Of a stretch of 64,000 nt of DNA, positions 1-40,074 are shown in pieces (positions within the stretch are counted from its first letter, which is position 1; every line of letters begins with the position of its first letter). Position numbers and translations under genes: made by a program. This DNA comes from Blastocatellia bacterium (lineage in GTDB: Bacteria; Acidobacteriota; Blastocatellia; UBA7656), in NCBI GenBank assembly GCA_035293105.1, contig DATDOV010000079.1:101574-165573 (forward strand), read 5' to 3'. Below the pieces are notes generated by a model. The model did not search any database. It was not told the origin of the DNA and worked only from the letters and a program-made list of their open reading frames with translations.

Positions 1-548
1 TCGAGCGGTCCTGACGTGTCGATCTCGAAATCGGCGTATCGGCGCTTCTCGTCCGAAGACATCTGCGCGGCGATCCTCCGCTCGGCGTCGTCGCGAGTGA
101 TCCGGTTGCGCCGCATCAAGCGCCCAATCTGGGACTCCCGATCACAGTAGGCGACGATCAGCTTGTCGAACCGTTTGTAGCCGCCCGATTCGATCATCAG
201 CGCGGCGTCGATTATGGCGATGCCTTCGGGATTGGCGGCTTCAGCTTCCGAGAGCAAGCGGTTCTGCTCTTCGATGACTCGCGGATGGACGATCTCGTTG
301 AGCCGGTTGCGCCGCCCCTCATCGGCAAACACGATTGCTCCGAGCTTCACCCGGTCTATCGAGCCGTCTTCGGCGAGCACGTCCGGGCCGAACTCGCGCA
401 CGATATCTTGATGAGCGGGCCGGCCGGGTTCCATGACTGAATGCGCGATCTTGTCCGCGTCGAAGGTCACGCAGCCAAGCTCGGCCAGCACGGAAAGCAC
501 GAAGCTCTTGCCGACCGCGATGCTCCCCGTTAGCCCGACCTTGAGCAT
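1..548 (-). CDS. coaE: dephospho-CoA kinase (partial, runs off window start)
   Basis: Reverse-strand translation starts at ATG 546-548: MLKVGLTGSIAVGKSFV... with the P-loop GxxxxGKS and length and profile typical of CoaE; continues to the window edge. Confidence 0.85.
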   Translation of the reverse strand, partial: MLKVGLTGSIAVGKSFVLSVLAELGCVTFDADKIAHSVMEPGRPAHQDIVREFGPDVLAEDGSIDRVKLGAIVFADEGRRNRLNEIVHPRVIEEQNRLLSEAEAANPEGIAIIDAALMIESGGYKRFDKLIVAYCDRESQIGRLMRRNRITRDDAERRIAAQMSSDEKRRYADFEIDTSGPL

Positions 549-652
549 AACCAACAAACCAATCGCCTATGGGAAAACAACGAACGCAGTGGTTCGTTGC
601 CGTTCCTTCGCCGCTTTTCTGTGGCTTCTGAGCCTCTTTGCGGCTGCCCTCT

Positions 653-1141
653 TCACTCCCAGATTTCGTCAGCAGCCTGTTCACCCATCAGCTTGCCGAG
701 CGCCGTCTGGCCGCCGAACTTCGCCACCAACTGATCGTCGATCTCGTCGGCGACGCGCGCGATGGCCGAGACGCTCGCGTAGAGTTCCTCGCGCTCCATC
801 GAATCCCCGAGTATCGTGTGCGTGAGCATCACCGTCCCCTTGCCGTCCTCGCCGATCGATAATCCGAACCCGCCGAGAATCAGCCGCAGATTGTACGTCA
901 GCAGAAACCGCATCATCTCTTCTGTGACGTCGAGGTCGACTACGACGTAGGAGAAGATCTCGACGCCCGCGCGCTTGTCCCCTATGGGAAACACTCTGGC
1001 ATAGACGAAGGTCGAACCTTCCTGCATCACGAACGTATCGCCCAATGCTTTGACGTTGACCTCGCCGAAAAGCGTGTAAAGATGATCGCGGGTCTTCTCG
1101 TAGACTTTTTGCTGGGCGTCAGTCTTGAATTCCATCGGCAT
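653..1141 (-). CDS. YbjN-like (putative sensory transduction regulator / chaperone-like) protein
   Basis: 162-aa ORF; acidic C-terminus and overall pattern resemble the YbjN family; same strand, directly upstream of coaE. Confidence 0.55.
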   Translation of the reverse strand: MPMEFKTDAQQKVYEKTRDHLYTLFGEVNVKALGDTFVMQEGSTFVYARVFPIGDKRAGVEIFSYVVVDLDVTEEMMRFLLTYNLRLILGGFGLSIGEDGKGTVMLTHTILGDSMEREELYASVSAIARVADEIDDQLVAKFGGQTALGKLMGEQAADEIWE

Positions 1142-1149
1142 ATGGGAGG

Positions 1150-3447
1150 TCAGGCTGAACCGGCGCCCGGATCGACGGCGCTGACAGTCACCGCCCCGCC
1201 TTCGACGCGCACCGAGACGTTCGGACGCGCGCCGACGATTCGGCGATCGATCCGAAGGTTCGTGAACGGGATGACGATCGTCTCCTGCCAGATTCGCTCG
1301 AGTTGAGCGAGGCTCTTATGCTCGACGGCGAGTTGCTCCGTGAAAAAGCGAGGCAGGTTCGGGTCGACCGTAATCGCGACCGGTTGGGATGACTCGAGCC
1401 GCGCCACGAGTGAATCCAGCCGCTCCCTGATGATTCTTTCCGTGGCATCCCTGTCGAGGACCTGAAACTCGATTACTTCATCAATCGCTGCGGCGAGGGT
1501 CTCCGCCAAGCCCCAGCGCGAGGTTCGTTCGCGCGCAAGTCCTCCAGTGCCGGCCCGGCGGAGGTCGACCTCGCCCGTCGCGGAGAAGCCTATGTGAATC
1601 GGCTTGCTATTCTCGCTCACCCGCGACAGCGACATCGCGACCGTCGTGTTCGACAGCGAGATTCGGACGCCGCCGGCGTCGGTGAATCTACCCTGCTCGA
1701 ATGCTTCGCCGAGAAACTGCTGGACTACCGGGTGGGCGAGGTCGATGTTCTTGAAGTAGAGGACCGAGTGCGGGTTGTCTTCGGCGGCCTTCGACAGCAA
1801 TCCTCCGCGCTCGCCGTATCCGACGTAGCCGGGTTCGGCGCCGACGAGGCGTGAGATCGAGTGCGGCTCGGTGAACTGGGTCATATCGAATTCGATCATC
1901 TTCTGCGGCGAGCCGTACAGGAACTTGGCGAGCGCGGCAGCCATCTCGTGCTTGCCGACTCCTTCGGGTCCGACGAACAGGAACACGCCGTCGGGTTGTT
2001 CGGGTCTCAGCTCGAGTCCGAGCTTCGCGATGCGGACTACGCGGGCTACGTCGCGGACGGCGCGGGCCTGACCGGGCACTGCCGCGTTGAGAAAGTCTTC
2101 GAGGCGTTCGAGCCGCTGGGCGGGGTCTTCGTCCATGATCTCCAGTGGCAGGCCCGTAGTTTCAGACAAGGTCTCGGTCACGTCTTCGCGCGCAAGCCGG
2201 TCGCGGCCCGCGAGCGCAGCCTTCGCGGCTGCCTTGTCCATCAGGTCGAACGCCTTATCGGGAAAGCTGCGCGAAGACAGGAATCGGTCAGCCTTCTCGA
2301 TTATGAGCGAGATGACCTCCTCCTCGATTCTGACTCCGTGATAGCTCTCGAACGCCGCGCGTGACAGCGACACGATGCGGCGCGCCTCGTCGATTGAGGG
2401 CTCCTCGATGGTGATCGTGCTGAATCGCCGGGCGAGCGCCTCGTCGCGGGCGATGTACTTGTAGTATTCGGCGAGTGTGGTCGCTCCGATCACGGCGATC
2501 TCGCCTTTTGACAAAGATGACTTGAGCAGGTTGGCGACGTCGCCGGTTCCGCCCGCGCCCCCCGCGCCCAACAGGGTGTGGATTTCATCGAAGAACAGGA
2601 TGACGTCGCCCGCGCGACGCACTTCTTCCAGGAGCGACTTCAATCGCTCTTCGATGTCGCCGGAGAACTTTGCGTCCGCGAGCAGGCGCAGCCGCGACAC
2701 TTCAAGGATTCGTTTGCCGCGCAGCCGGAGCGGTACGCTGCCCTCGCCGAGCCGCCCGGAGACGGCGCTGACCAGCGCAGTCTTGCCGACGCCGGGCCTC
2801 CCGATCAGGAGCGGATTGTTTTTGAGCTTGCGGCAGAGAGTCTCCAGAACGGCGGTTATCTCGCGATCGCGGCCGACGAACGGATGGCTGGAGGCGGCTC
2901 TGGAAGCCTCTGACAGGTCGATGCAGAATTCGAGCAGCGCGCCGGAGAGAGGACGCATCGGAGTTGGCGCGGTGACGCCTTCTGTCGCCGCCTTGCCCTC
3001 CGCTTTTGCCGCCGTTGCGCTCTCCGGGGCGTACGTCGCGAGCAACTCGGCGACGACGCGCGTAGCGTCACCCTCATAGCCCAGCGCTTCTCTGATGCTG
3101 GACGTGGCCAGCACGGCGCCCAACAAATGAGCCGGCGCCACGAGTTGTCCCCTGATCGATTGTGCCATTCGCCCGGCTGCGGCGATGACCTCCTGGGTTT
3201 CCCTGGAGATAATGACCGACGGCGAGGGAGCGGCAGGAAGTTTCCCGAGCAGACCGCGTGCCTGTTCGAGCAGGCGCGCCAGTTCACTTTGCGCCGCCGG
3301 AGATTCCGCGCGGGTCCGCTCGAGAACGGTGACCAGAAGATGCAGCGGGGACAACGTACCGCCGCTCGATCGCGCGAGTTGTTTGGCCGCGTCGAACGCC
3401 TCGCGTGCGCCGGGCCCAAGTGAATTAAGCAGGTCTTGCTTGTGCAT
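1150..3447 (-). CDS. ClpA/ClpB-family AAA+ unfoldase, no long M-domain, second ATPase domain degenerate
   Basis: 765 aa. N-terminal double Clp_N repeat. D1 Walker A GRPGVGKTALV and Walker B LFFDEIH are intact. D2 Walker A is GPEGVGKHE (T->H) and the Walker B position reads VLYFKNIDLAH instead of hhhhDEIEKAH. An IGF tripeptide (HIGFSA) follows D2. Confidence 0.85.
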   Translation of the reverse strand: MHKQDLLNSLGPGAREAFDAAKQLARSSGGTLSPLHLLVTVLERTRAESPAAQSELARLLEQARGLLGKLPAAPSPSVIISRETQEVIAAAGRMAQSIRGQLVAPAHLLGAVLATSSIREALGYEGDATRVVAELLATYAPESATAAKAEGKAATEGVTAPTPMRPLSGALLEFCIDLSEASRAASSHPFVGRDREITAVLETLCRKLKNNPLLIGRPGVGKTALVSAVSGRLGEGSVPLRLRGKRILEVSRLRLLADAKFSGDIEERLKSLLEEVRRAGDVILFFDEIHTLLGAGGAGGTGDVANLLKSSLSKGEIAVIGATTLAEYYKYIARDEALARRFSTITIEEPSIDEARRIVSLSRAAFESYHGVRIEEEVISLIIEKADRFLSSRSFPDKAFDLMDKAAAKAALAGRDRLAREDVTETLSETTGLPLEIMDEDPAQRLERLEDFLNAAVPGQARAVRDVARVVRIAKLGLELRPEQPDGVFLFVGPEGVGKHEMAAALAKFLYGSPQKMIEFDMTQFTEPHSISRLVGAEPGYVGYGERGGLLSKAAEDNPHSVLYFKNIDLAHPVVQQFLGEAFEQGRFTDAGGVRISLSNTTVAMSLSRVSENSKPIHIGFSATGEVDLRRAGTGGLARERTSRWGLAETLAAAIDEVIEFQVLDRDATERIIRERLDSLVARLESSQPVAITVDPNLPRFFTEQLAVEHKSLAQLERIWQETIVIPFTNLRIDRRIVGARPNVSVRVEGGAVTVSAVDPGAGSA

Positions 3448-3531
3448 CTATTCGCGCCGCTTCAACGCCAGGGGACATTCGCTGCGTGGGAAGCCTATAT
3501 CGCCCGCCGATGGGGGTCAATGCTCGAGTTG

Positions 3532-3966
3532 CTACTGAATCGTTTCGGATGTGACGACAGCTTGGGGCTGGTTGAACTCGGTGACGCTGAGGAACTGCTC
3601 GGCGAAGACATTGGAGTTGATCAAGGTCTGGACGACGTAGTTGCCTGATGTTGGGAACCCGATGTTGGCGAAGATCGTGACGTTATCGGCGAACCCGCCC
3701 TCGGGAACCTGAAATGGAGAAGGCGGCGAGACTGCGATTGGCTGCGAGCGGTCCGGGCTGAGGATGCGAACTTCGGAGAGGTATTGTCCGTCGCCCGACC
3801 AGTGATTCAGGATGACTATCTTGAGCAAGGTGACGGGAAGCTGGGGCACCTGGATGGCGTGAAGCATGCCCATCAAGCTGAGTTTGTGATTGACTTCAAG
3901 CCGGATGTCTTCACACAGGATGGTGTAGTGCAGCCGCAGGTTAGGTTGATTCTCGGCCTCCGCCAT
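3532..3966 (-). CDS. hypothetical protein
   Basis: 144-aa ORF with coding-like composition; no motif recognised. Confidence 0.35.
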   Translation of the reverse strand: MAEAENQPNLRLHYTILCEDIRLEVNHKLSLMGMLHAIQVPQLPVTLLKIVILNHWSGDGQYLSEVRILSPDRSQPIAVSPPSPFQVPEGGFADNVTIFANIGFPTSGNYVVQTLINSNVFAEQFLSVTEFNQPQAVVTSETIQ

Positions 3967-4053
3967 TGCTTTCGCTCACTTCAAGAATCGCATGGAGACT
4001 ATCGCACACGGGAGAGAGCTAAACAAGCGCTTGACCCTGGAGAGGAGCCGGTT

Positions 4054-4153
4054 GGAATAAACGAGGCGCTTCAACGTAGTAACGAATTCATTCGTTCGGT
4101 TTGCTGAGAAACACGCGTCTCGCCAGCGTGGAAACGAATGAATTCGTTACTAC
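4054..4153. repeat. palindromic MITE/REP-like dispersed repeat (copy 1 of 3 loci)
   Basis: Leader ggaataaacgaggcgc, then inverted arms GTAGTAACGAATTCATTCGTTC ... GAACGAATGAATTCGTTACTAC around a ~40-nt loop. Near-identical copies at 53821-53919 and clustered half-copies at 26070-26245. Confidence 0.75.
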
Positions 4154-4326
4154 CAGGGATTACTGCGACAGGCTCCTAGCGGGGCGCGGCCTGCCTTTTG
4201 CGTCGCGCAAATGACCGCAGGCGGCAGTCACCGAAGCGACTTGCCGCCTGCATTCTTGAAGCCCCAGCGCCACAGATCGTTTGTCAGCGTTGCGCTTCAG
4301 GGTTCCTGCCTTGGATGTCACGAATT

Positions 4327-5079
4327 CTAGAACGGCCACTGGAACCCAGACCGGCCTCGATTGCCGTAGCCGCGATAGCCGTCGTCGTAGCCGCGGCGGT
4401 AGCCCTCACGGAAGCCCCGTTGATAGGTGTAGCGGTCGCCGAAGAACGGGTGGTAGCTGCCCAATCCGCTGCGGTAGCCATCCGAGTGCTCGTAGTTGTA
4501 TCGGCGCCGGTGTTTCCGGTCTTCTTCGCCGTGGTGGTGTCCGTCGCGGTAGCCGTTTCGAAGCGCTATCTGATAAGTTCGATTTCGATCGTCGCGTCCG
4601 TAGCCGCGATCCCGGTCGCCGTGATCGCCGCGTCCTCTGTTGTACCCCCCATCGTCCGGGTTGCCGCCTCGTCCATACACGTTGCCTCGATTGTCACCGA
4701 ATAGCCGGTCCACGTCGCGGCGGCTGTAGCGTCGCGAGCGGCGGTTCTGGCCATCGTTGAATCCTACGGTGAAGCCCCGGCGGTACGAGTCGCGGTAGTC
4801 GTCGCGGTAGCCCATCCAATCCCGCCAGCCTGAGGTGTCGTTTCGATAGCCCGGAGTGTCTTTGCAGTTTATGCGATAGCCGTTGCCGAGGGATCGCTCC
4901 CCGTCGGTGTACGCGTTATGGTAGGCGAAAACGTACCCGTACTCCCTGGTGTGTTCCTTGTCCCAGCGTCCGCCGTTCCGGTTGTCGTCGCGCGCATGGG
5001 TTGCGATTCCCGTCCCGAGCACGAGGGCGATTACCATCAGCCCGCTGCTCATCTTGTTCTTGAGTCCCGTCGTATTCAT
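4327..5079 (-). CDS. secreted low-complexity Arg/Gly/Tyr/Asp-rich protein
   Basis: Start at MNTTGLKNK preceded by GGGAGGA. Signal peptide MSSGLMVIALVLGTGIATHA. Remainder is repetitive (G)YR(D/N)G-type low complexity (RGYGRDDRNRTY, GYRRGYDDGYRGYGNRGR). Confidence 0.5.
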   Translation of the reverse strand: MNTTGLKNKMSSGLMVIALVLGTGIATHARDDNRNGGRWDKEHTREYGYVFAYHNAYTDGERSLGNGYRINCKDTPGYRNDTSGWRDWMGYRDDYRDSYRRGFTVGFNDGQNRRSRRYSRRDVDRLFGDNRGNVYGRGGNPDDGGYNRGRGDHGDRDRGYGRDDRNRTYQIALRNGYRDGHHHGEEDRKHRRRYNYEHSDGYRSGLGSYHPFFGDRYTYQRGFREGYRRGYDDGYRGYGNRGRSGFQWPF

Positions 5080-5331
5080 CTTCTTCCTCCCTCGAACCAC
5101 CATCGAACTCGATGATCGCTCGCGCCGATTGGATTACAACCCGAGTGCCAAAGGTGGCCCGCACCGGCGAACCGGTATTCCATTCAACGGCTAAGCTACA
5201 ACGGCGTGGCCCTCGGGCGGATTCAACTTCGGCTATGCGGACCCGAAATGCGAAGCGCGTTCGACGATATCGTGTAAGGCAGAAGCAACAATCGCGATAG
5301 GCGATGAGGACAAGTGACCGTGCCGCGTCGT

Positions 5332-5826
5332 CTACTCGACGACGGCGAGAATCTGGTTAGCGATGACTGTCGCGCCTTCCGTCACACGGACTTCGGCGAC
5401 GTGGCCGCGTTTGGGAGACTTGATCTCGTTCTGCATTTTCATAGCTTCTACGACGACCACGCCCTGGCCCGCCGCGACCTCATCGCCCGGCGCCAGCAAC
5501 ACGCGAACTACCTTACCCGGCATCGGCGCGATCAAATCGTGACGGCCTTCTCCGGCGTGTTCGGTTCCGGCGCGCCGGTGCTTGCGGTCGATGATGCTGG
5601 CGGTGAAGACGCGGTCCCGGAGCTTGACGCGCATGGAGTTCGCTTCGACTGAAGACACTCGCGCTTCGTACACATTATCGCCCGCGAAGATCAGGTAGAC
5701 ACCCTCCTCGGGGCGCTCTATTTCCACGTCGTAGTTTCGGCCGCCGATCGTCGCCGACAGGCGGCCGTTACGCTCCTCCATCTCTATGCTGACATGGTTG
5801 CCGTCGATTTCTGCTTCGTATTTCAT
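5332..5826 (-). CDS. biotin carboxyl carrier (biotin/lipoyl attachment) domain protein
   Basis: C-terminal VVVEAMKMQNEI biotinylation motif (AMKM); lies 13 nt downstream of accC. Confidence 0.8.
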   Translation of the reverse strand: MKYEAEIDGNHVSIEMEERNGRLSATIGGRNYDVEIERPEEGVYLIFAGDNVYEARVSSVEANSMRVKLRDRVFTASIIDRKHRRAGTEHAGEGRHDLIAPMPGKVVRVLLAPGDEVAAGQGVVVVEAMKMQNEIKSPKRGHVAEVRVTEGATVIANQILAVVE

Positions 5827-27455: not shown

Positions 27456-27686
27456 ATGAGCATGAACCTCGAGGAACTAGAAACCGAGGCGCTACGCCTA
27501 GACCCGCAATCGCGCGCAAAACTAGCCGAACGGCTGTTGCACAGTCTGGACGATCTCTCGGATGAGGAGAACGAACGGCTGTGGGCCGAGGAGGCCCTGC
27601 GCCGCGAGGAGGAGATCGAGGCTGGCTTAGTCACGACGCGGCCAGCAGAGGAAGTGTACCGCGACGCACGGTCCAGGCTCAGATGA
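27456..27686 (+). CDS. addiction-module antitoxin (putative addiction module component family)
   Basis: MSMNLEELETEALRLDPQSRAKLAERLLHSLDD... typical of the small antitoxins paired with RelE/ParE-like toxins. Confidence 0.65.
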   Translation: MSMNLEELETEALRLDPQSRAKLAERLLHSLDDLSDEENERLWAEEALRREEEIEAGLVTTRPAEEVYRDARSRLR

Positions 27687-27907
27687 ACCGCCTACTGTCG
27701 TTCCATCCGGTGGCCGAGTACGAGCTATGCGAAGCGGCAGATTACTATGACCTTGAACGCCCAGGGCCAGGGAGAATCTTCCTTGATCAGGTAGAAAGTG
27801 CCACGAGCCAGATACTGCAATTTCCAGAAGCTGCGCTGGTTAATCGAGTCGGTCGCCGAGAGTTTCAGAGTGGGCGTTCGGATTTCCAAGAGCGAGGGCG
27901 TGACTAG
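27683..27907 (+). pseudogene. RelE/ParE-like toxin, C-terminally truncated remnant
   Basis: ATG overlaps the antitoxin stop (ATGA). N-terminal half (HPVAEYELCEAADYYDLERPGPGRIFLDQVESATSQILQFPEA) matches the toxin family. The C-terminal core (RRFPYGIIY...HGARD) is missing and the ORF ends early. Confidence 0.5.
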
Positions 27908-27930
27908 CTTTGGCTCTGTGAGGAGATGTC

Positions 27931-28192
27931 ATGCCGGAAATCAGCCGCTTTCTTGGCATCATCATCACGATGTATTTTAACGAGCACAACCCGCCGCATT
28001 TTCATGCACGCTACGGAGAACACAGGGCGGAGATCGCTATTCAAACCCTATCGATCATCGGCGGGAGGTTACCTCCCCGAGTGCTGGGGCTGGTTATGGA
28101 ATGGGCCGCTTTCGCATCGCGACGAACTAATGGAAGACTGGGAATTGGCCCGTCAGCAAACCGAGCTTAGACGGATTGCCCCACTGGAGTAA
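27931..28192 (+). pseudogene. DUF4160 protein with apparent frameshift
   Basis: N-terminus MPEISRFLGIIITMYFNEHNPPHFHARYGEH in one frame; family C-terminus ...HRDELMEDWELARQQTELRRIAPLE is in the +1 frame from about 28105. Confidence 0.55.
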
Positions 28193-28196
28193 ACCA

Positions 28197-28481
28197 ATGT
28201 TCCTTATCGACGTAGTAGATGTTAGGCCACTGGATGGTCATCAGCTTGAGCTAACGTTCAAGGACGGGCTGAAGGCCGTCGTGGATTTAGATCGGGTCAT
28301 TCGATCTTTCGAGGGAGTCTTCGCTCCGCTCAAAGATCCGGAGTATTTTCGACTGGTTCGTGTTGACACGGAGATTGGCACGATTGTCTGGCCCAACGGC
28401 GCTGACTTGTGCCCGGATGTGCTTTATTCCTATGCGTCCGGCAAGCCGATTATCGTGAACGGCGAGCGCGTCCTCAACTGA
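28197..28481 (+). CDS. DUF2442 protein (usual partner of DUF4160)
   Basis: MFLIDVVDVRPLDGHQLELTFKDG... about 95 aa. Confidence 0.6.
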   Translation: MFLIDVVDVRPLDGHQLELTFKDGLKAVVDLDRVIRSFEGVFAPLKDPEYFRLVRVDTEIGTIVWPNGADLCPDVLYSYASGKPIIVNGERVLN

Positions 28482-28874
28482 ATGAATCTGGGGACCTTTC
28501 GAGTGGGTTCGCCTCGCAAACCGGGCGACGGCTTGCGAGTCGGCACAGTGCGCTTTCTGCCGCGCGGAGTGAAGAAAGAAGACTACGCGCGACTGGACTA
28601 CTTCGACGTCTGGTTTCCGTTGCTGGCTCCAAGCTCGGAGCTGCTCAAGTGGCTGAAGAGCCGTGAGTGGCCAAGCGAGCAAGTGCGCTGGTCGAAGTTC
28701 AGAGAGCGCTACGTTGCCGAGATGAACAAGACCGACGCGCGTCAGGCTATCAAGCTTCTGGCAGAGCTAGCCAGAGCTACTTCGGTGAGCATAGGGTGTT
28801 ACTGTGAGGATGAGTCAGCCTGCCATCGCTCGACACTGCGGGCGTTGATAGAACGAGCCGCCATCTTGCCTTGA
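28482..28874 (+). CDS. DUF488 / YeaO-family protein (copy 1 of 3)
   Basis: ...RVGTVRFLPRGVKKEDYARLDYFDVWFPLLAPSSELLKW...GCYCEDESACHR aligns with E. coli YeaO ([36 protein letters not shown]). Confidence 0.75.
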   Translation: MNLGTFRVGSPRKPGDGLRVGTVRFLPRGVKKEDYARLDYFDVWFPLLAPSSELLKWLKSREWPSEQVRWSKFRERYVAEMNKTDARQAIKLLAELARATSVSIGCYCEDESACHRSTLRALIERAAILP

Positions 28875-28917
28875 GGAAGCTGGCCGCATGTCCTCAGCGG
28901 TGTATAATGAGCGAGCT

Positions 28918-29256
28918 ATGACAACCCTAGAGAATACTCAAGCCGTGCCCCTGACAGTCTGGGAAGACGGTTCGATTCGTGTCGCCGGCTCGCGGGTAAC
29001 GCTCGACTCGATTGTATATGAATTCAAGCTCGGCGCCACCGCGGAGCAGATCCTTCACAGCTTTCCGTCAGTTTCGTTGCGCGATATCTACGGCGCGATT
29101 TTCTATTACCTCAACAACACCGAGGTTGTCGAAGAGTACCTTGGTCACCGCGAACGGGGGGCGGAAGAGACGCGGTTGTTCATTGAGAGCCGCTTGGACA
29201 CGAGGTCCCTTCGCGAACGGATCCTGGCCAGGCGTGACCAGATGGTTGGCAGATAA
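28918..29256 (+). CDS. DUF433 protein (antitoxin-like partner of DUF5615)
   Basis: MTTLENTQAVPLTVWEDGSIRVAGSRVTLDSIVYEFKLGATAEQILHSFPSVSLRDIYGAIFYYL. Confidence 0.6.
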   Translation: MTTLENTQAVPLTVWEDGSIRVAGSRVTLDSIVYEFKLGATAEQILHSFPSVSLRDIYGAIFYYLNNTEVVEEYLGHRERGAEETRLFIESRLDTRSLRERILARRDQMVGR

Positions 29257-29286
29257 CGCGCGAGTCCGGCTACGCTTCGTGGCCTT

Positions 29287-29625
29287 CTGTTTGACGAAAA
29301 CTTCAATCATAGAATCGTACATGGGTTGCAATTGCGCCTGCCGGGTCTCGATTTCGTGATTGCTCAGGAAATAGAACTGAAGGGCGCCAAAGACCCGGAG
29401 TTGTTGGAGTGGGCCGCGACGCAGAACCGGGTCGTCGTCACGCATGACGTCGACACATTGTTGAAGTTCGCATACGAACGCATAGTTGGCGGCCAACTGA
29501 TGCCGGGCGTGATAGCCGTCCCACAGATCCTCCCGATAGGGCAAGCGATAGACGATCTGGCAACCGCCATCGAGTGCTCGGAGGCAAGCGATTTGGAGAA
29601 CTCAGTCTTGCACCTGCCTTTGTAA
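29287..29625 (+). CDS. DUF5615 (PIN-like) protein; start codon uncertain or non-canonical
   Basis: In-frame LLFDENFNHRIVHGLQLRLPGLDFVIAQE... begins right after the DUF433 stop. No ATG/GTG upstream; CTG at 29287 or TTG at 29326. Confidence 0.5.
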   Translation: MFDENFNHRIVHGLQLRLPGLDFVIAQEIELKGAKDPELLEWAATQNRVVVTHDVDTLLKFAYERIVGGQLMPGVIAVPQILPIGQAIDDLATAIECSEASDLENSVLHLPL

Positions 29626-29669
29626 CTGAAAGACGCGGGGACTGACTCGGGGCCGGCCTTGGATAAGAT

Positions 29670-29921
29670 ATGAAATACGAACTGTTCACCCGAGTCGCGC
29701 TGAATACCGATCTGCCGCGATACGGACTCCGCAGCGGGGACGTGGCAACGGTCATCGAGCACCATCCCGGACGGCCAGGCCAAGAGCCCGGCTACAGCCT
29801 TGAAGTGTCTAACGCGGTCGGGGAAACGGTCGCCGTGGTCACCGTCCGCGAGTCTCAGATCGTGCCGCTCAATGCCAACGAACCTTTGCATGTCCGCCTG
29901 CTGGCGGAAACGTCCCGCTGA
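29670..29921 (+). CDS. DUF4926 protein
   Basis: MKYELFTRVALNTDLPRYGLRSGDVATVIEHHP... 83 aa. Confidence 0.55.
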   Translation: MKYELFTRVALNTDLPRYGLRSGDVATVIEHHPGRPGQEPGYSLEVSNAVGETVAVVTVRESQIVPLNANEPLHVRLLAETSR

Positions 29922-29977
29922 TCGCTACCCGACGCGAATAGAACAGATGGACCGCGCCCGTCGGGGATCTGTTTAGG

Positions 29978-30382
29978 ATGCCGAGCTCCACGATAAATCT
30001 GGGAACGTTTCGAGTGGGCTCGCCTCGCAAGCGGGGCGAGGGCTTGCGAGTCGGCACAGTGCGCTTTCTGCCGCGCGGAGTGAAGAAAGAAGACTACGCG
30101 CGACTGGACTACTTCGACGTCTGGTTTCCGCTGCTGGCCCCAAGCTCGGAGTTGCTCCGATGGATGAAGAGCCGCGAGTGGCCAACCGAGCAAGTCAGGT
30201 GGTCGAAGTTCAGAGAGCGCTACACTGCCGAGATGAACAAGACCGCCGCCCGCCAGGCGATCAAGCTTCTGGCAGAGTTAGCCAGAGCGACGCCGTTGAG
30301 CATAGGGTGCTACTGCGAGACCGAGTCAGCCTGTCATCGCTCGATACTGCGTGAGTTGATTGAAAACGCGGCAGGCGAGTAG
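29978..30382 (+). CDS. DUF488 / YeaO-family protein (copy 2 of 3)
   Basis: About 90% nt identity to 28482-28874 over the whole gene. Confidence 0.75.
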   Translation: MPSSTINLGTFRVGSPRKRGEGLRVGTVRFLPRGVKKEDYARLDYFDVWFPLLAPSSELLRWMKSREWPTEQVRWSKFRERYTAEMNKTAARQAIKLLAELARATPLSIGCYCETESACHRSILRELIENAAGE

Positions 30383-30452
30383 GAGGGCTAGCCGTGCCGA
30401 TGAAGTCGCGGTTCAAGCGATGATATATCTGGACCATAACGAAGCAACTCGA

Positions 30453-30896
30453 TCATTTCACGTCGGCCGGAGAGACGGCAGTGATTCCTGGATAGCGCTT
30501 GAAGTCGGCTACGTTGAATGTAAGCAGATGCGTGATGCCATACACATTCATCGAAGCGACAAGCTTGGCATCGTGAACCTCAACGCCCATCACCGAGTGA
30601 GTTACAACAAGCCGCCGCCATTCCTGGAAGGTCGCTAGACTGTCCGGGAGCAAACGAAAGTAGCGTTCAATCAGACGCGCTTTTCGTTCTGTTTGAGTCA
30701 ATGAAAGGCTGAGCCCGCCGCGCGCCGAAGCCGGACGAGTACCGACGTTCCAGAACTCGCTCAGGACCTGTGGAGTGAAACAAAGAACTTCATTTCGCGA
30801 GCGGAGCCTTCGCAGAGCATCAAGAGCCATTTGGCGCTGCGGATCGTTGCGGTGGGCCAGCCGGAGAAACAGATTCGTATCGAAAAGATAGGCCAT
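30453..30896 (-). CDS. vapC: PIN-domain toxin (VapC-like)
   Basis: MAYLFDTNLFLRLAHRNDP... acidic PIN residues (D5, E, D, N/D). Confidence 0.75.
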   Translation of the reverse strand: MAYLFDTNLFLRLAHRNDPQRQMALDALRRLRSRNEVLCFTPQVLSEFWNVGTRPASARGGLSLSLTQTERKARLIERYFRLLPDSLATFQEWRRLVVTHSVMGVEVHDAKLVASMNVYGITHLLTFNVADFKRYPGITAVSPADVK

Positions 30897-31159
30897 CAGT
30901 CGTGGTCGAAGTAGATGTCGGCGCGCGAATAGCTCCCGGAGTAAGCTGGCAGATGCTCCGTTCCTTCGGCAAACGCTTGCATGTCCGCTTCAAACTCAGC
31001 GTCGTTCGCGGGAGCGGGCGCTGATAATTCATCAACTGATCGGGTTGCGCTGGCTTGCACAAGGCTCTCGACAAAGGACTTCACATCCAGGCCATACGCC
31101 TTAGCCCTTTGTTCCAAAATGTGTCTCACGTCTTCGGGAACTGAAATCGTTAATTCCAT
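30896..31159 (-). CDS. VapB-like antitoxin
   Basis: 87-aa ORF whose stop overlaps the vapC start. MELTISVPEDVRHILEQRAKAYGLDVKSFVESLV. Confidence 0.55.
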   Translation of the reverse strand: MELTISVPEDVRHILEQRAKAYGLDVKSFVESLVQASATRSVDELSAPAPANDAEFEADMQAFAEGTEHLPAYSGSYSRADIYFDHD

Positions 31160-31398
31160 TCGCGACTCTCTATCCGTTTCTCGATCCAGATTCCAAGTCC
31201 ACGTCTGTATCTATGAGTAGCGCATTGCTGTCGCGCCAGGATCTCCTTACTCATACAACGCGCCTCTTAGATTGGCAGCAGTATAGCACTCCGGTGACTA
31301 GCTGATAAGAGAGTACGATCAGACGCGTGCGCGTCACGATTTTGCGCGAGAAGGGAGGGACTGCTTGACCGTCGCAAAAAGTGCGTCACCCCAGAGTA

Positions 31399-31588
31399 TC
31401 TCATTAACACCTCACTTCAGTGAGGTGCCCTCGACCGAGCGGATCCCCCAACCGTTTCAACGGTTTCCTCTCTCGCAGTCGTCTTTCAAACTCGAAGTCT
31501 TCGGATTCCATGAGCGCAAACCGTTAAAACGGTTCAGGGGATCCGCCGAGCCAAGAGCACCTCACTGAAGTGAGGTGTTAATGAGAAC
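31399..31588. mobile_element. ~190-bp near-perfect palindromic MITE-like element
   Basis: Left end tctcattaacacctcacttcagtgaggtg and right end cacctcactgaagtgaggtgttaatgaga are reverse complements. Each end is itself a hairpin. Inner nested inverted repeats (gatcccccaaccgtttcaacggtt / aaccgttaaaacggttcaggggatcc). Confidence 0.6.
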
Positions 31589-31733
31589 CGATGTTCCCGC
31601 GAGCCTTGACGTCCCAGTTTTGATCACATCCCCAAACCGTGACGCGCACCCCGATCAGACGGCTCGGCCACGCAACCAAGTAGATGTTCGTAGTACCGGC
31701 TTCAGATGAAATCATGGCCTTGGCGTCGGCATA

Positions 31734-32048
31734 GTGCGCTTTCTGCCGCGCGGAGTGAAGAAAGAAGACTACGCGCGACTGGACTACTTCGACGTCTGGT
31801 TTCCGCTGCTGGCCCCAAGCGCTGAGTTGCTCACTTGGCTGAAGAGCCGCGAGTGGCCGAGCGAGCAAGTCAGATGGTCGAAGTTCAAAGAGCGCTACGT
31901 TGCCGAGATGAACAAGACCGACGCGCGGCAGGCTATCAAGCTTCTGGCCGAGTTAGCCAGAGCTACTCCGTTGAGCATAGGGTGTTACTGCGAGAACGAG
32001 TCAGCCTGTCATCGCTCTATGCTGCGTGAGTTGATCGAAGAGCCCTGA
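31734..32048 (+). pseudogene. DUF488 / YeaO-family protein (copy 3), 5'-truncated
   Basis: Homology to copies 1 and 2 starts at codon ~25 (RFLPRGVKKEDYARLDYFDVWFPLL...). First ~25 codons are replaced by unrelated sequence next to the palindromic element. Confidence 0.6.
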
Positions 32049-32136
32049 AGCTTTAGTGGGTCGTAGGATTGGTCCGACGCTTTCGCGATAATCTGCGATT
32101 TGAAGCAATCGAAAACTTGGGATAGGCTTACGTCCC

Positions 32137-33057
32137 ATGAAAAGCCTTGGTTCAGCCGGCAGCCTACCTTTGTTTGATGAATCTGCAGACGGCAACCCTC
32201 TTGAACATCAATCCGAGAAGCCCGAAAAGACTTCGCCCTTTAGCGACCTTGATCTGAATCGCTGGCGCGAATATGAAGACATCGTTACCGACTCGCTGTG
32301 GCTCATACCAGAACGGGACCGGACTGGCGCGCATCTCGCGGACTATCACGGAAACTTTGTTCCTCAAATCCCCTATCAGGCGATGCGGCGGTTTACGAAA
32401 CGCGGAGATGTTGTGCTCGACGCATTCTTGGGTTCCGGCACGACCCTCATCGAATGTCGCAGACTAGGGCGACACGGAATCGGCGTTGAGCTTAAGCCAG
32501 AGCTTGCAAAGCAAGCAGCCGACCGTATCGCGAGCCAAGGCAATCGCTACCAGGTCAAGACAGAGGTGCTGACGTCAGATAGTTGTGATCCCGTAAAGAC
32601 TCCTGGAGTCATTTCGCAGAGTCTTGAAACCATCGGCAAGGATTCAGTGCAGCTTGCAATACTTCATCCTCCGTATCATTCAATAATTAGGTTCTCTGAT
32701 CGTGCGGATGATCTGTCTAATTGCCCTACGGTTGACGTGTTTCAAAAAACGTTTGGCCGAGCGGTTGATGTAGTGACTCCATTCCTCGACATAGGCCGCT
32801 ATCTGGTCTTGGTCATCGGTGATATGTATGCTGGCAGCGAATGGATTCCTCTTGGATTTCGGTGCATGAACGAGATAATGGAGCGCGGGTACACTCTGAA
32901 GAGCATCGTCGTTAAAGATATGCAAGGAAATCGGGCTAAACGAAATCTGGAGAACATCTGGCGCTATCGCGCGCTAGTCGGCGGCTTCTACATCTTCAAG
33001 CACGAGTACGTCATGTTTTTCAGGAAGGGCAGAACGAATGGCCGAACTGCCATTTAG
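32137..33057 (+). CDS. N6-adenine or N4-cytosine DNA methyltransferase (R-M)
   Basis: Motif I VVLDAFLGSGTT; motif IV LHPPY (D/N/S-PP-Y variant). Confidence 0.8.
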   Translation: MKSLGSAGSLPLFDESADGNPLEHQSEKPEKTSPFSDLDLNRWREYEDIVTDSLWLIPERDRTGAHLADYHGNFVPQIPYQAMRRFTKRGDVVLDAFLGSGTTLIECRRLGRHGIGVELKPELAKQAADRIASQGNRYQVKTEVLTSDSCDPVKTPGVISQSLETIGKDSVQLAILHPPYHSIIRFSDRADDLSNCPTVDVFQKTFGRAVDVVTPFLDIGRYLVLVIGDMYAGSEWIPLGFRCMNEIMERGYTLKSIVVKDMQGNRAKRNLENIWRYRALVGGFYIFKHEYVMFFRKGRTNGRTAI

Positions 33058-33685
33058 TCAAGGCTCAAAGCTCCGTCAGACCTTTCAAATCCTCGCAGAT
33101 GGTAACTGGCATTGCGGCAAACATGAGTTGCCAGGAACGCAGCCTGCGAAGGCGATTCAGATCATCAGGCAGACCGGATACGAAGTAGAGAACAGGACGC
33201 AGCATTGCAATCGTTGCGACGAACGGACTGTCCACCGACGACTCGTTTCGACCAGCCCGTCGGCGAGCTCAGTGGCCCGGTCGGCGTTGCCGGAAAAGCT
33301 CAAGGGGCGTGTGAAGACGCTGTTCAAGAACATCGAGGCCATCACACAAAGAACCTACGAACCGAATCAGCTGGAGGTGGACCACCGTTTTCCGCAAGTA
33401 AGGTGGTCGAGCCCGGAGGCGATGAATGATCCGAACATGTCGGATGCTGATATCACTGCAAAGTTCCAGCTCCTTACACGGCAGCACAATCTATGGAAGA
33501 GTCGGTATTGTGAGGCATGTTTGAAAACTGGGCGTCGTGGGACCTATATCGGGATTGAGTACTTCTACGAAGGCGGCTTGATGTGGCCAGAGGACATTCA
33601 TCCAGACGACGAACGCGGCTGCATTGGTTGCTTTTGGTATGACCCTGAGAAATGGCGCCAGAGCCTGAACCAGCTTGTAAGCTAA
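33038..33685 (+). CDS. putative type II restriction endonuclease partner
   Basis: Overlaps MTase 3' end by 20 nt. Cys-rich (CGKH...CNRCDE...CEAC...CIGC) with an EVDHRFP HNH-like element. Confidence 0.45.
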   Translation: MAELPFSQGSKLRQTFQILADGNWHCGKHELPGTQPAKAIQIIRQTGYEVENRTQHCNRCDERTVHRRLVSTSPSASSVARSALPEKLKGRVKTLFKNIEAITQRTYEPNQLEVDHRFPQVRWSSPEAMNDPNMSDADITAKFQLLTRQHNLWKSRYCEACLKTGRRGTYIGIEYFYEGGLMWPEDIHPDDERGCIGCFWYDPEKWRQSLNQLVS

Positions 33686-33727
33686 CCTGCGCGGCCATCG
33701 GTGAAAGAGTACGAAACCCAAACCTGG

Positions 33728-34510
33728 TTATCCGAGGTCGCCGGGACGTACAGTCACTATAGTGAGAACGCGGTTGTAGTATGGCAATAGTATGGAGTCT
33801 TCCCACACCTTCCCAAAAACGTGTCCGGCTAGCCATGCCTCTGCACGTACGGCTCCGTCTTGCTCGCGCTCTTCCGTCGGGCGGAAGAGGTTGCTCGCGA
33901 GGGACTCGACGCTGACTTCAGTACCTTTGCGCTTGATGTAATGCTGGAATTGAGGGCCGGGTCTCCACCATTCAATTATCCCGCTGTCACTAACCACCAA
34001 AGCGCATTGTTCCTCAGTGACGTCGACGCACTTGACAGTAGCTGCGGTTAGCGAGGTCTGAAATTTCGCACTTATCTTTTTCGCGACCACCACGGTTGCT
34101 GACTCTTGTCGAACGATAGTGGCTGCTTGTGCCGATGGAATTAGCAATTCTGACGCGAACCGATTCGCGTCAATCTCGTGTTCTGGTGCGCCGCGGCTCC
34201 ACGATTCGACGTCGCGACTCTTACAAACGCAATCTAGCTCTCCGTGCCCCGGTAGAATGTAATGGCCGAGTTCGTGAGCGATCGTGAATCTCTTCCGGCC
34301 AGGCTCACGTATGGTCGCCTTAACAGCGACGATACCTGTCGGTTTGTTAGGAATACGAACCAACGCGCCTTCGAAACCCTCTGACTCGACCTCGCAAATC
34401 TCCAACCCGATTCTGTCCGCAAGCTCAGATAGATCGGGCGTCGTCGATATCTTGAATCGCCTTAAGAGCGCGCGAGCGAAGTCTTCAGGTTGTGCTGGTG
34501 TCCGATTCAC
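33728..34510 (-). CDS. ImmA/IrrE-family metallo-endopeptidase (COG2856, CapP-like)
   Basis: HEXXH (IAHELGHYIL) followed by EIDANRFASELLIP, the family signature E-x-N-x-F-A-x-x-L-L. Confidence 0.75.
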   Translation of the reverse strand: MNRTPAQPEDFARALLRRFKISTTPDLSELADRIGLEICEVESEGFEGALVRIPNKPTGIVAVKATIREPGRKRFTIAHELGHYILPGHGELDCVCKSRDVESWSRGAPEHEIDANRFASELLIPSAQAATIVRQESATVVVAKKISAKFQTSLTAATVKCVDVTEEQCALVVSDSGIIEWWRPGPQFQHYIKRKGTEVSVESLASNLFRPTEEREQDGAVRAEAWLAGHVFGKVWEDSILLPYYNRVLTIVTVRPGDLG

Positions 34511-34959
34511 TCTGACCCCGTATCGCCCTCGTCAAGCTTGCTTTTCAGCGAATCGAGGATTTCTTTGTCCTTGGAGGAGACCTTCTCGCCAAGCTTACGA
34601 CCGCGTAGCGAGGATACGGCCTCAGCGCCGGCAGAGGGCAGAGTCCCGCTCAACAGGTTAGCTAAGTAGCAGTCGGGGTCAACACCAGCAGACTCCGACT
34701 TCTTCTCTTCTGCACGCCGCAGATTCCTCAGAGCGTTCTCCACTGGGACCGGCACACTTTTGCTTTTCGACCTGAGTTCACGCACTCCAGCTTCGACTCT
34801 TGACATCAGCTTGGAAACCAGATCAGATGAATCAACACCACAAGCCTTAAGCACATCCTTGGCAGTTTCAAGATCAATCTCTTCGTCAGGCCCTAGTAAC
34901 GCCTCGAAGAGTTCATCTTCTTCGGTCTTTGGAAGTGGCTGGGTTCTTTTGTTAGGCAT
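34507..34959 (-). CDS. acidic low-complexity protein (candidate anti-sigma / peptidase substrate)
   Basis: 150 aa, highly charged. Translationally coupled on both sides: 14-nt gap to the upstream gene, 4-nt overlap with ImmA. Confidence 0.4.
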   Translation of the reverse strand: MPNKRTQPLPKTEEDELFEALLGPDEEIDLETAKDVLKACGVDSSDLVSKLMSRVEAGVRELRSKSKSVPVPVENALRNLRRAEEKKSESAGVDPDCYLANLLSGTLPSAGAEAVSSLRGRKLGEKVSSKDKEILDSLKSKLDEGDTGSE

Positions 34960-34973
34960 ACGCGGCCACCTTT

Positions 34974-35561
34974 CTAGTTACCCTTCTGCCGATACTTCAT
35001 CGATCCGGCACGGCGCCAGCCGGTAAGTCTCGTTCTCACTCTCCGCTGGCGGCCCCTCAGTTGCTGAGCGGTTATACCGAGGAACTCTGCAATTTCCTTT
35101 GGCTTTGCTGGCCACAACTCCAGAACCGCCTCAACATAATCCTCCAGTTCTTTCTCCCCTTTTACAAGAGCGTAGATTCTCGCCTTTGTGAGGGCATCGT
35201 GCTCAGCGTTCCCAAGGTCGTCCTCAAAGGCGTCGATTACCCTGAGAGCCTTCTCATGCTTTAGCGAGTCCAGAACGGTACTCCTCTTATACCCGCTGTG
35301 TTTCGTCACTATGTCCAGGAAATCACGCGTCATGACAGTCAGGAGCAACGGATATGGGTCTTCATCGTGTGTCTTGGGCCGCCATTCTACGCCTCTTTGG
35401 AATATGAAGGCTTCAACTGTCTCAACAGCAAAGTCTTCAGCGGATTTCCCAGACCCCGGTAGAACTGATAGCCCTTGACGGACGAATAGCCCTTCGGCAG
35501 CGGCATACAACCGACTTAGCAGGCCTTCCAGATCGACATTCGCGAAGCGTGAATCGTCCAT
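34974..35561 (-). CDS. divergent sigma-70-family (ECF-like) protein
   Basis: Region-2-like SAEDFAVETVEAFIFQR...DPYPLLLTVMTRDFLDIV and region-4-like HTH EIAEFLGITAQQLRGRQRRVRTRL. Confidence 0.45.
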   Translation of the reverse strand: MDDSRFANVDLEGLLSRLYAAAEGLFVRQGLSVLPGSGKSAEDFAVETVEAFIFQRGVEWRPKTHDEDPYPLLLTVMTRDFLDIVTKHSGYKRSTVLDSLKHEKALRVIDAFEDDLGNAEHDALTKARIYALVKGEKELEDYVEAVLELWPAKPKEIAEFLGITAQQLRGRQRRVRTRLTGWRRAGSMKYRQKGN

Positions 35562-35820
35562 TCCGGGACCTCTTCATTCTTAAAGCGAGTCAGGGTCTAG
35601 GAACTGGCAAGAAATCTGTCATCAAGAAATTTTTCTGCCAGTTTTAGCCGACACAGTCGCTTAGACAGTGGAGGTTGGCACCGGCCGATTAGCCGTCATC
35701 TAACAAGAGGCATGCTAACCCACGGAAAGGGCTAAGAGGAAGATCAACCAGACACGGACGATCTGCTTGGACGATCTGCTTGGCCACGACAGCAACCGAA
35801 CCTGAAGGGAGTTATCAACA
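35562..35820. promoter_or_regulatory. divergent control region between sigma/ImmA operon and Ubl operon
   Basis: Inverted repeat AACTGGCAAGAAAT-N13-ATTTTTCTGCCAGTT. GGAACT -35-like element. Tandem 14-mer gacgatctgcttgg x2. Confidence 0.45.
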
Positions 35821-36852: not shown

Positions 36853-36854
36853 AA

Positions 36855-38246: not shown

Positions 38247-38719
38247 TCGTTCTGACTGACTGGAACGCCAATCTTGGGCACGCAGACACGCCGCCGCCAT
38301 ACCCTTTGATCATCCTAATCCAGAACCCAGACGCCGCTTTCGCGAATTGCATCGTACATCGCGTCTGGTGCAAGATCACCACCGTTCGGCCACTGCACCA
38401 CACCCATAACCACTCGCGCTCCGGCAAATACGGCGGCTCGCGTAGCGGCTCGAACACTGTGCCGTCGATCTCAGAGCTGCTGAGAAACGCTCGCATATCT
38501 ACGTTCCCCGGCGTGCCATCGCCGAATCTTACGTGCAATTCCGGGAACGCAAAGACGCGAGAATCTCTAAGATCGCCAAGTGTGCTACCGCTTCAGTCCG
38601 TCACTAGAGGCTCGCGGCGGATTGTTCAGACATAGCCTACAACCAGAGAGACATCTCTCTTCGATTCGCGCTTCTATTCCTACCTTTGTGTTACAATCTC
38701 GCGAAAGGAGCGGAGCCAA

Positions 38720-39240: not shown

Positions 39241-39412
39241 GTGACTCGATTATCGTGGCTAGGCTCCGCACCCGCCTCACGATCGAGCTTCCAGTCAAGG
39301 CTAGCGCTCAAAGGCACGGTCGTGGGCCGACTGCTTTGGTTCATGTGGTTCGTCCAACTCCGTGTAGCCACACAGAGCCGAGTCGAGTATACTCGCCAGC
39401 AAGGAGTAGGTC

Positions 39413-39946: not shown

Positions 39947-40074
39947 AGCAAATAGACGATCATTATTCACTGGTTGAAACTGGTTGATTATCCACTGACC
40001 CTGGCAGATAATCCGCCACTTGACCGGTGCATGAGAAGCTAGAGGCAGACCGACGTTGCTCTAAACTAGGGGAT

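Follow-up and report, generated by a model that had tools for sequence, protein, structure and literature searches.

A conserved ClpA-like ATPase of Blastocatellia with a predicted hydrolysis-dead D2 module, a retained PhiGF loop and a linked TY-Chap1 gene

Introduction

Class-I Clp/Hsp100 ATPases consist of a classic-clade D1 module with its lid, followed by an HCLR-clade D2 module, with working Walker A and Walker B motifs, an Arg finger and sensors in both. Escherichia coli-type ClpA (TIGR02639) has an N-domain, D1 and D2 without an M-domain, and carries a PhiG(F/L) docking loop following the D2 sensor-1. ClpAP is the best-studied double-ring Clp protease, and its principal motor is D2. This module performs 80–90% of the ATP hydrolysis in E. 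coli ClpA, and a D2-inactive variant fails on many substrates (PMC7568338). ClpC of Staphylococcus aureus, Bacillus subtilis and Mycobacterium tuberculosis (ClpC1) shares an N-domain of the Clp_N type and has in addition a coiled-coil M-domain of ~60 residues, inserted into the small subdomain of D1, that binds MecA and controls ClpC. The ClpC residues A671-G672-F673 form the PhiGF tip of a P-loop that inserts into hydrophobic pockets of ClpP, and ClpP binding is lost in a G672D/F673D mutant (PMC12521514). Here, we describe a Clp ATPase gene from a 64,000-nucleotide stretch of a Blastocatellia bacterium genome (assembly GCA_035293105.1, contig DATDOV010000079.1, positions 101,574 to 165,573 of the forward strand; below called the window). 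Its product has the architecture of ClpA and an intact D1, whereas D2, the main motor of ClpA, is predicted to be catalytically dead. The predicted loss of this main motor is unexpected, and D2, together with its pore loop and its docking loop, is nevertheless under strict selection across the whole family.

Double-ring AAA+ proteins with one inactive ring are known. Examples are NSF (D2), Pex1/Pex6 (D1) and Hsp104, where NBD2 acts as a slow oligomerization site. In such proteins the work falls to one ring, while the hexamer is held together by the other, which binds nucleotide. A similar division of labor between the rings may apply here. However, these proteins belong to other families, and in the protein described here the silent ring is the HCLR ring that would face ClpP. 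We know of no case in which NSF, Pex1/Pex6 or Hsp104 docks onto ClpP.

A small protein beside, or dedicated to, a class-I Clp ATPase is known from the clpS–clpA and mecA/clpC pairs. The locus described here likewise has a small neighbor, but in place of clpS it is a gene of the TY-Chap1 family. Unlike ClpS and MecA, this putative adaptor has the TY-chaperone fold of type III secretion system (T3SS) CesT/YopN chaperones and YbjN, and ends in Trp-Glu. TY-Chap1 (PF22551) was defined in ARG/ADP-ribose (ADPr)-processing neighborhoods of ADP-ribose conflict systems, in a paper that mentions neither Clp nor AAA+ (PMC9503650). In contrast to those systems, the genomic context here is housekeeping. In the literature searched, we found no description of a D2-degenerate Clp family, no mention of DUF6941 (a third family at this locus) and no link of TY-Chap or YbjN to Clp or ClpA. 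Papers that name both YbjN and Clp drew no link between them in their titles and the openings of their abstracts. The current annotations, 'ClpA/ClpC' for the ATPase and 'hypothetical' for its partner, mask the difference.

Results

Domain architecture and family placement

The open reading frame (ORF) encodes a protein of 765 residues with an N-domain, D1 and D2. The Pfam matches (AAA, residues 213–327; AAA_lid_9, 351–448; AAA_2, 485–606) and full-length alignments to ClpC, ClpB and ClpA structures identify it as a class-I Clp/Hsp100 ATPase with a classic-clade D1 and its lid in tandem with an HCLR-clade D2. The gene and its domains are located as follows.

1150..3447, minus strand: Clp gene; ORF with Pfam AAA, AAA_lid_9 and AAA_2; nearest Protein Data Bank (PDB) relatives ClpC, ClpB and ClpA
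3028..3447, minus strand: N-terminal helical domain, residues 1–140, Clp_N-like and divergent; from NCBIfam alignments and an AlphaFold2 (AF2) model
2203..2940, minus strand: D1 AAA+ module, residues 170–415, every catalytic motif intact; from the ClpC and ortholog alignments
1258..2202, minus strand: D2 AAA+ module, residues 416–730, predicted hydrolysis-dead, strongly conserved; Pfam AAA_2, 3.6e-32

The nearest solved relatives in a phmmer search were the ClpC proteins of S. aureus and B. subtilis, followed by ClpB and ClpA, with ClpC as the best PDB match (373 bits). The M-domain of ClpC (residues 407–468, ~62 residues) has no counterpart. D1 ends at about residue 414 and D2 starts at about 416, and these positions lie opposite ClpC residues 406 and 469. 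Because the ClpC-type M-domain is absent, the architecture is ClpA-like. The highest scoring NCBIfam models were ClpV1 (457 bits), ClpB (450 bits) and ClpA (433 bits), with cut-offs far higher (885 to 1232 bits), and no equivalog cut-off was passed. The ClpA hidden Markov model (HMM) aligned to residues 77–727 in a single stretch, but the score of 433 bits compares with a cut-off of 993.15 for TIGR02639, and PRK11034 gave 326.6 against 1350. Membership in ClpB/Hsp104 was excluded by the score (450 versus 1232 bits), the missing M-domain and the presence of a PhiGF loop. The same applied to ClpV/TssH, with 457 versus 885 bits and the neighbors coaE, accB/accC and greA in place of type VI secretion genes. 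The first-pass annotation of this DNA, made from the sequence without database searches, had called the protein ClpA-like. This holds for the architecture, but by sequence the protein is closer to ClpC.

The N-domain is the most divergent part. Alignments of the NCBIfam models for ClpV1 and ClpB begin at residue 14–15, and PF02861 is precomputed for many of the orthologs, while Pfam Clp_N gave no match in the window protein itself. In the AF2 model this region is predicted to be helical, with a predicted local distance difference test score (pLDDT) of 76–91 across residues 1–120.

Catalytic motifs of D1 and D2

The D2 motifs were assigned from the phmmer alignment to S. aureus ClpC, and their coordinates were confirmed by translation. 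The D1 motifs were located by translation and in the ortholog alignment.

2779–2802, minus strand: D1 Walker A, GRPGVGKT; translation of coordinates
2659–2673, minus strand: D1 aromatic pore loop, AKFSG; ortholog alignment
2584–2601, minus strand: D1 Walker B, ILFFDE; translation of coordinates
1945..1971, minus strand: D2 Walker A, GPEGVGKHE opposite ClpC GPTGVGKTE; the Mg-coordinating Thr is His500, the P-loop Gly and Lys are kept
1816..1842, minus strand: D2 pore-1 loop GAEPGYVGY, retained; the same in 110 of 120 orthologs
1732..1764, minus strand: D2 Walker B position, VLYFKNIDLAH opposite ClpC VILFDEIEKAH; Asp-Glu is Lys566-Asn567
1645..1650, minus strand: D2 sensor-1 Asn600 in SNTT, retained; Asn in 122 of 122 orthologs
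1486..1488, minus strand: D2 Arg-finger position, Ala654; ClpC RPEFLNRVDDIIVF versus Clp AETLAAAIDEVIEF
1303..1305, minus strand: D2 sensor-2 position, Gln715; ClpC YGARPL (GAR) versus SLAQLE (LAQ)

D1 is complete. Its Walker A Lys222 and Thr223, its Walker B Asp287 and Glu288 and the retained Arg pair Arg340/Arg341 are invariant in the ortholog alignment, and the canonical Walker motifs that had been noted for D1 on first reading were confirmed.

In contrast, D2 lacks four of five catalytic elements, namely the Walker A Thr, the Walker B Asp-Glu, the Arg finger and the sensor-2 Arg; in all four it differs from ClpC. Two of these losses, the Thr to His exchange in GVGKHE and the replaced acidic pair, had been claimed before. 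Both were confirmed, with Lys566-Asn567 standing exactly at the Asp-Glu position of ClpC; a misplaced alignment at this point would have refuted the claim. The earlier count was too low, since Ala654 and Gln715 replace the Arg finger (ClpC FLNRVDD versus LAAAIDE; LNR versus AAA) and the sensor-2 Arg as well. The nucleotide-binding elements of D2, on the other hand, are invariant: G493, G496, G498, K499, N600 and V457-P458-G459-Q460 (VPGQ). From the four losses, D2 is predicted to be incapable of ATP hydrolysis.

The PhiGF loop of D2

A tripeptide that could dock onto ClpP, IGF, had also been pointed out in the first-pass annotation. It is present within KPIHIGFSATGE in the translated protein.

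1513..1620, minus strand: flexible loop, residues 610–645, carrying I619-G620-F621 (1585–1593); aligns with ClpC AGF 671–673

The IGF of the loop stands exactly opposite the AGF of S. aureus ClpC, and the loops of both proteins are of equal length. Thus D2 carries a PhiGF loop as found in ClpC, and it is a candidate ClpP docking element. The AF2 model predicts the loop to be disordered. Among 122 aligned Blastocatellia orthologs, Gly620 and Phe621 are invariant (122 of 122), and the residue before them is Met, Val, Phe, Leu or Ile. An invariant Gly-Phe within an otherwise variable loop is the pattern that selection on a short docking motif leaves.

Conservation among Blastocatellia orthologs

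A search of 5.8 billion proteins listed at least 120 homologs of ~730–800 residues with 64–71% identity. The organism-named homologs among those listed were all from Blastocatellia or Acidobacteriota metagenome-assembled genomes (MAGs). A scan of species genomes found an ortholog in ~30 Blastocatellia species, one of them represented by a Chloracidobacterium MAG.

Conservation was measured as mean column conservation in the 122-sequence alignment. The large subdomains of D1 (0.91) and D2 (0.909) scored alike. The N-domain had the lowest value of all regions (0.53), and loop 613–650 was intermediate (0.65). The replacements in D2 are fixed: His500 was found in 116 of 122 sequences, Arg or Lys at 566 in all 122, Asn567 in 120 and Gln715 in 117. 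By this measure, purifying selection acts on D2 as strongly as on D1. Since the dead D2 is conserved as well as the live D1, decay can be ruled out. A sequencing artefact, which would have undone the first-pass claim, and a pseudogene were both rejected, because the ORF is intact and at least 120 orthologs carry the same changes.

A dead-D2 clade across phyla

The D2 half alone was searched against 1.84 billion representative proteins. One full-length representative with 68% identity and a fragment of the same group with 62% identity were found, followed by a sharp drop in score. The next relatives by identity (P0125, P0128 and P0129; 39–49%) have GVGK(R/Y/K) in Walker A, F(R/K)N at Walker B and (V/I)GF in the loop. 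When P0129 was used as the query, WOR-3 proteins with GVGKKE, FRNIDLA[HD] and IGF were found, as well as Dependentiae proteins with GVGKYE or GVGKDE, FKNVENTH and VGF. The Blastocatellia group was next in rank among the matches listed. These distant relatives from WOR-3, Dependentiae and other groups, with 37–49% identity, show the same four losses and have kept PhiGF and GY[VI]G.

In total, 16 clade members were compared with canonical proteins. The residue following the Walker A Lys in D2 is H, R, K, Y, D or S in the clade and T in the comparators. The Walker B pair is (R/K)N, or TG in P0399, versus DE. No clade member has an Arg at the Arg-finger or the sensor-2 position, where the comparators have R in both cases. 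GY[VI]G, the D1 pore aromatic residue and PhiGF are kept in 16 of 16 members. Neighbor-joining trees were calculated with simple distances from the 16 members and 53 unlabelled canonical comparators. The dead-D2 members were monophyletic with bootstrap support of 100/100 on D1 columns, on D2 columns and on both combined. As the clade is recovered on D1 columns alone, the grouping is independent of the degenerate D2 motifs.

Two further D2-degenerate proteins, P0159 and P0177, did not fall robustly inside the clade (monophyly of all 18 had bootstrap values of 16–40). P0177 (locus L082) has GPTGCGKES and FSNIERAN in D2, P0159 (L083) has GPRDSGRYE and ITNIDMAA, and both have kept LGF. P0159 has a weak YbjN/CesT-like neighbor and P0177 has none. 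Their position outside the main clade means that D2 inactivation may have occurred more than once. In addition, a contig labelled Planctomycetales (L074, 3773–4045) contains an isolated match with 81% identity to Clp residues 589–681 only, the region of the PhiGF loop. Possible explanations are a fragment of a gene, a chimeric assembly and mis-binning.

Linkage to TY-Chap1

Directly downstream of the Clp gene lies the partner gene, which starts 8 nucleotides past the Clp stop codon.

653..1141, minus strand: TY-Chap1 gene, 162 residues, T3SS/YbjN-type peptide-binding chaperone fold; Pfam PF22551, 1.3e-15

The PF22551 match had 57.6 bits against a threshold of 27 and covered profile positions 10–130 of 132, which places the protein in TY-Chap1. 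Comparison with the orthologs suggests that Met3 is the true start.

Across all fetched loci, an adjacent TY-Chap1 gene on the same strand was present at 37 of 40 dead-D2 loci and at 0 of 33 canonical-D2 loci. Many of the 37 are close relatives, but they include at least six separately sampled, mutually divergent lineages. In WOR-3 (L077/L078) TY-Chap1 lies upstream of Clp with an overlap of 4 nucleotides, and in L079 it lies downstream. It is again upstream in L005 (Pfam 1e-5), L004 (hhalign 93.5%), L081 (own-HMM E-value 4e-40) and L080 (hhalign 99.1%), where the Clp protein P0397 resembles P0128 of Dependentiae. Outside Blastocatellia, the flanking genes other than TY-Chap1 are unrelated. 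Adjacency in at least six divergent lineages with variable gene order typically indicates functional coupling. L080 also contains two short ORFs (916–1434) that lie between its full-length TY-Chap1 gene and Clp and match the TY-Chap1 profile (E-values 4.6e-11 and 2e-23). Together they resemble a second tandem copy that a frameshift or an assembly error has split in two.

The three dead-D2 loci without an adjacent TY-Chap1 comprise a truncated contig and two loci of one subclade (L016 and L032). In the latter subclade, which has the D2 Walker A GVEGAGKHE, the upstream DUF6941 gene is kept and TY-Chap1 and coaE are missing downstream. The genes that follow Clp in L016 instead encode an M48 peptidase and an Atg22-like transporter. 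TY-Chap1 may be located elsewhere in these genomes or may have been lost.

The partner from the window ends in Trp161-Glu162 (656–661). All 36 of the 36 full-length partners counted end in Trp-Glu-COOH after a variable, often charged linker; the L005 protein ends in Trp-Gly. This terminus looks like a short linear docking motif or a degron. No ClpS homolog was found in the window or beside any dead-D2 gene among the fetched loci, whereas a clpA gene typically has clpS adjacent. Among these loci, the sole ClpS match is next to the gene of a canonical Clp ATPase from Treponema (L042).

DUF6941 and the order of the locus

Upstream of Clp lies a third conserved gene.

3532..3966, minus strand: DUF6941 gene, 144 residues, ends 84 nucleotides ahead of the Clp start; PF22091, 43.7 bits versus a threshold of 27

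On the minus strand, the order is thus DUF6941, a gap of 84 nucleotides, Clp, a gap of 8 nucleotides, TY-Chap1 and coaE, which runs off the start of the window. This order is kept in ~28 of 30 Blastocatellia loci. DUF6941 itself is upstream of Clp in 30 of 30 Blastocatellia loci and in no other locus fetched. It is predicted to be an all-beta protein; the model is a beta-sandwich of low confidence, and a fold search with it returned no informative match. At its C-terminus (3532–3549), the 30 Blastocatellia loci show a conserved [ST][ED]xIQ-COOH after a variable segment, which is a candidate for a second C-terminal docking or degron motif of the cluster. A scan of positions 1–5400 for promoters and terminators found sites no commoner than in shuffled sequence. 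The operon boundaries consequently rest on the spacing alone (8 and 84 nucleotides).

The neighborhood is of a housekeeping type (coaE, accB/accC and greA). A role in defense was considered, as TY-Chap1 originates from ADPr conflict systems. We rejected this reading in view of that context and of the PADLOC results, which gave generic AAA matches for the ATPase and none for TY-Chap1 or DUF6941.

Discussion

The first-pass annotation had proposed either a one-engine Clp ATPase or a regulatory pseudo-ATPase domain. After our analysis, the sequence is still best read as that of a Clp ATPase with one engine, in which D2 is a pseudo-ATPase and the ClpP loop is kept; the inactivity is predicted from motifs. 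We give roughly an even chance to a model in which a D1-powered unfoldase feeds ClpP, D2 is a nucleotide-binding docking collar and TY-Chap1 is a dedicated adaptor. The protein would form a ClpA-like hexamer, in which D1 as the sole ATP-hydrolyzing motor pulls substrate along the axial channel. D2 would bind nucleotide without turnover, as it has kept the P-loop, sensor-1 and the adenine-side motifs and has lost the catalytic Glu, the Arg finger and sensor-2. The basic residue at the position of the Walker B Asp possibly stands in for Mg2+. D2 would then be a static collar that stabilizes the hexamer; its GYVG loops would line the channel and its six PhiGF loops would dock on ClpP. Given that D2 does most of the hydrolysis in ClpA, a machine driven by D1 alone is expected to be low-powered (PMC7568338). 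It may be a weak ClpP-feeding translocase for unstructured or chaperone-held clients. TY-Chap1, whose gene takes the place in the operon that clpS occupies next to canonical clpA, would hold the client or select it, and would itself be tethered to the unfoldase by its flexible tail and the terminal Trp-Glu. DUF6941 could be an additional component specific to Blastocatellia, as an adaptor, regulator or substrate.

Several points weigh against this model. The inactivity of D2, its binding of nucleotide, the assembly into hexamers and the binding to ClpP have all been predicted from the sequence. For the ATPase, the AF2 model reached a pLDDT of 66, which is moderate, and was poor over D1 because the input alignment was shallow; it was used solely for the N-domain and for the disorder of the loop. 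The data do not distinguish between an adaptor, a substrate and an inhibitor role of TY-Chap1, and the Blastocatellia loci L016 and L032 lack the adjacent gene. The tblastn searches for clpP, clpS and clpX with E. coli queries covered the window and the fetched flanks and gave no match beside any dead-D2 gene. However, clpP is often unlinked to clpA and clpC genes, and its absence from the flanks is thus uninformative. Finally, by analogy with the ClpA data, a D1-only motor may be too weak for real unfolding (PMC7568338).

The last two of these points also enter into a different model, in which the ATPase remodels proteins independently of ClpP. D1 would strip or release clients held by TY-Chap1, and the PhiGF loop would bind another partner or be structural. 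The partner gene fits such a role, as TY-Chap1 belongs to the T3SS-chaperone/YbjN superfamily, whose members pass clients to an ATPase (PMC9503650). T3SS ATPases that dissociate chaperone–effector complexes would be an analogous case. A weak D1-only motor would be expected here too (PMC7568338), and clpP is near none of ~40 loci, an absence that is uninformative for the reason given above. We nevertheless consider this model unlikely. The Gly-Phe is present in 122 of 122 orthologs, PhiGF is kept across phyla at the exact position of a validated docking motif, and the ring proximal to ClpP still has its GYVG pore loop.

The combination of a dead motor with an intact docking loop would also suit a regulatory or decoy subunit. 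Like the inactive ClpR subunits of ClpP rings, such a protein would tune proteolysis, here by competing with ClpA, ClpC or ClpX for ClpP pockets or by entering mixed hexamers, and a core regulatory role would fit the housekeeping neighborhood of coaE, accB/accC and greA. However, D1 is fully canonical and is conserved like an active enzyme, both pore loops are conserved although a pure decoy would not need them, and Clp has its own dedicated partner gene. Co-assembly with ClpC is disfavored by the missing M-domain and by a D1 so diverged that the clade is monophyletic on D1 alone. We judge a decoy role to be distinctly unlikely.

Another question is whether D2 might still be an ATPase by non-canonical chemistry, for example with His500 or Asn567 as a metal or water ligand, or with an Arg finger supplied in trans by the partner, as LAP1 and LULL1 do for torsins. 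Torsins, relatives from the HCLR clade, have a non-canonical Walker A and receive their Arg finger in trans, and P0129 has a weak Pfam Torsin match (E-value 0.01). The P-loop Lys and the sensor-1 Asn are kept, and the replacements are conserved within Blastocatellia. On the other side, D2 lacks three elements at once, namely the catalytic Glu, the Arg finger and the sensor-2 Arg, and the basic residue (Lys or Arg) that replaces the Walker B Asp should repel Mg2+. Within the clade, the residue following the Walker A Lys is free to vary between H, R, K, Y, D and S, unlike a conserved catalytic ligand. This makes D2 catalysis highly improbable. A functionless decaying paralog or an assembly or sequencing error has only the motif loss in its favor and is practically negligible, given the intact ORF, the at least 120 orthologs with the same changes, the D2 conservation of 0.91 and a multi-phylum clade with conserved linkage.

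Returning to the ClpP-feeding unfoldase, a wider proposal can be made, which we regard as tentative and as having somewhat less than an even chance. The Clp and TY-Chap1 genes of Blastocatellia, WOR-3, Dependentiae and other groups may form an ancient, unrecognized two-gene proteolysis module. It would consist of a ClpP-docking unfoldase, with D1 as its only motor and D2 as a nucleotide-locked, Mg-independent docking collar, and an adaptor of the T3SS/YbjN fold tethered by Trp-Glu. If true, the module would be a natural experiment and show that a double-ring protease can do without ATP hydrolysis in the ring next to ClpP. The family would offer a natural system to study the role of a non-hydrolyzing ClpP-proximal ring, the work that a classic-clade D1 can do alone, and whether ATP turnover in the docked ring is needed for ClpP activation. 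The linkage to TY-Chap1 and its Trp-Glu terminus points to a possible new class of Clp adaptors, and also to what one branch of the YbjN/TY-chaperone superfamily, which is poorly understood, may do in the cell.

Additional observations in the window

In nearly all Blastocatellia loci, the gene immediately downstream of TY-Chap1 is coaE (dephospho-CoA kinase; 3–557, minus strand). The discovery of E. coli YbjN goes back to multicopy suppression of a temperature-sensitive pantothenate kinase (reference 178 in PMC9503650). Both enzymes belong to coenzyme A biosynthesis, but the parallel is probably a coincidence. Upstream of DUF6941, an ORF on the minus strand (4327–5103) encodes a protein of 258 residues with an N-terminal hydrophobic segment and a repetitive body rich in Arg, Asp, Gly and Tyr. 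It matches no Pfam family and is conserved with 31–47% identity in ~10 Blastocatellia loci.

Further away, positions 27500–42000 form an island of low G+C content (0.53–0.57, versus 0.60–0.64 in the flanks outside ~26–44 kb), which looks like a mobile or defense island. No tRNA genes were found in the window. The island contains a type II restriction-modification pair and other genes.

29978–30382, plus strand: DUF488
32137–33057, plus strand: N6/N4 DNA methylase
33038–33685, plus strand: REase_II, PADLOC 4e-39
33728–34510, minus strand: IrrE/M78 peptidase
40027–41088, plus strand: RhuM

Also within the island is a prokaryotic ubiquitin-like conjugation cassette (35821–38635), in which no JAB or Ubl gene was identified. 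It starts with Prok-E2_E (35821–36852, plus strand), which overlaps a ThiF/E1-like gene (36813–38246, plus strand; weak PADLOC E1-E2 matches). The latter in turn overlaps an ORF of 130 residues without an assigned family (38243–38635, plus strand). The cassette could be a defense module of the E1/E2 type.

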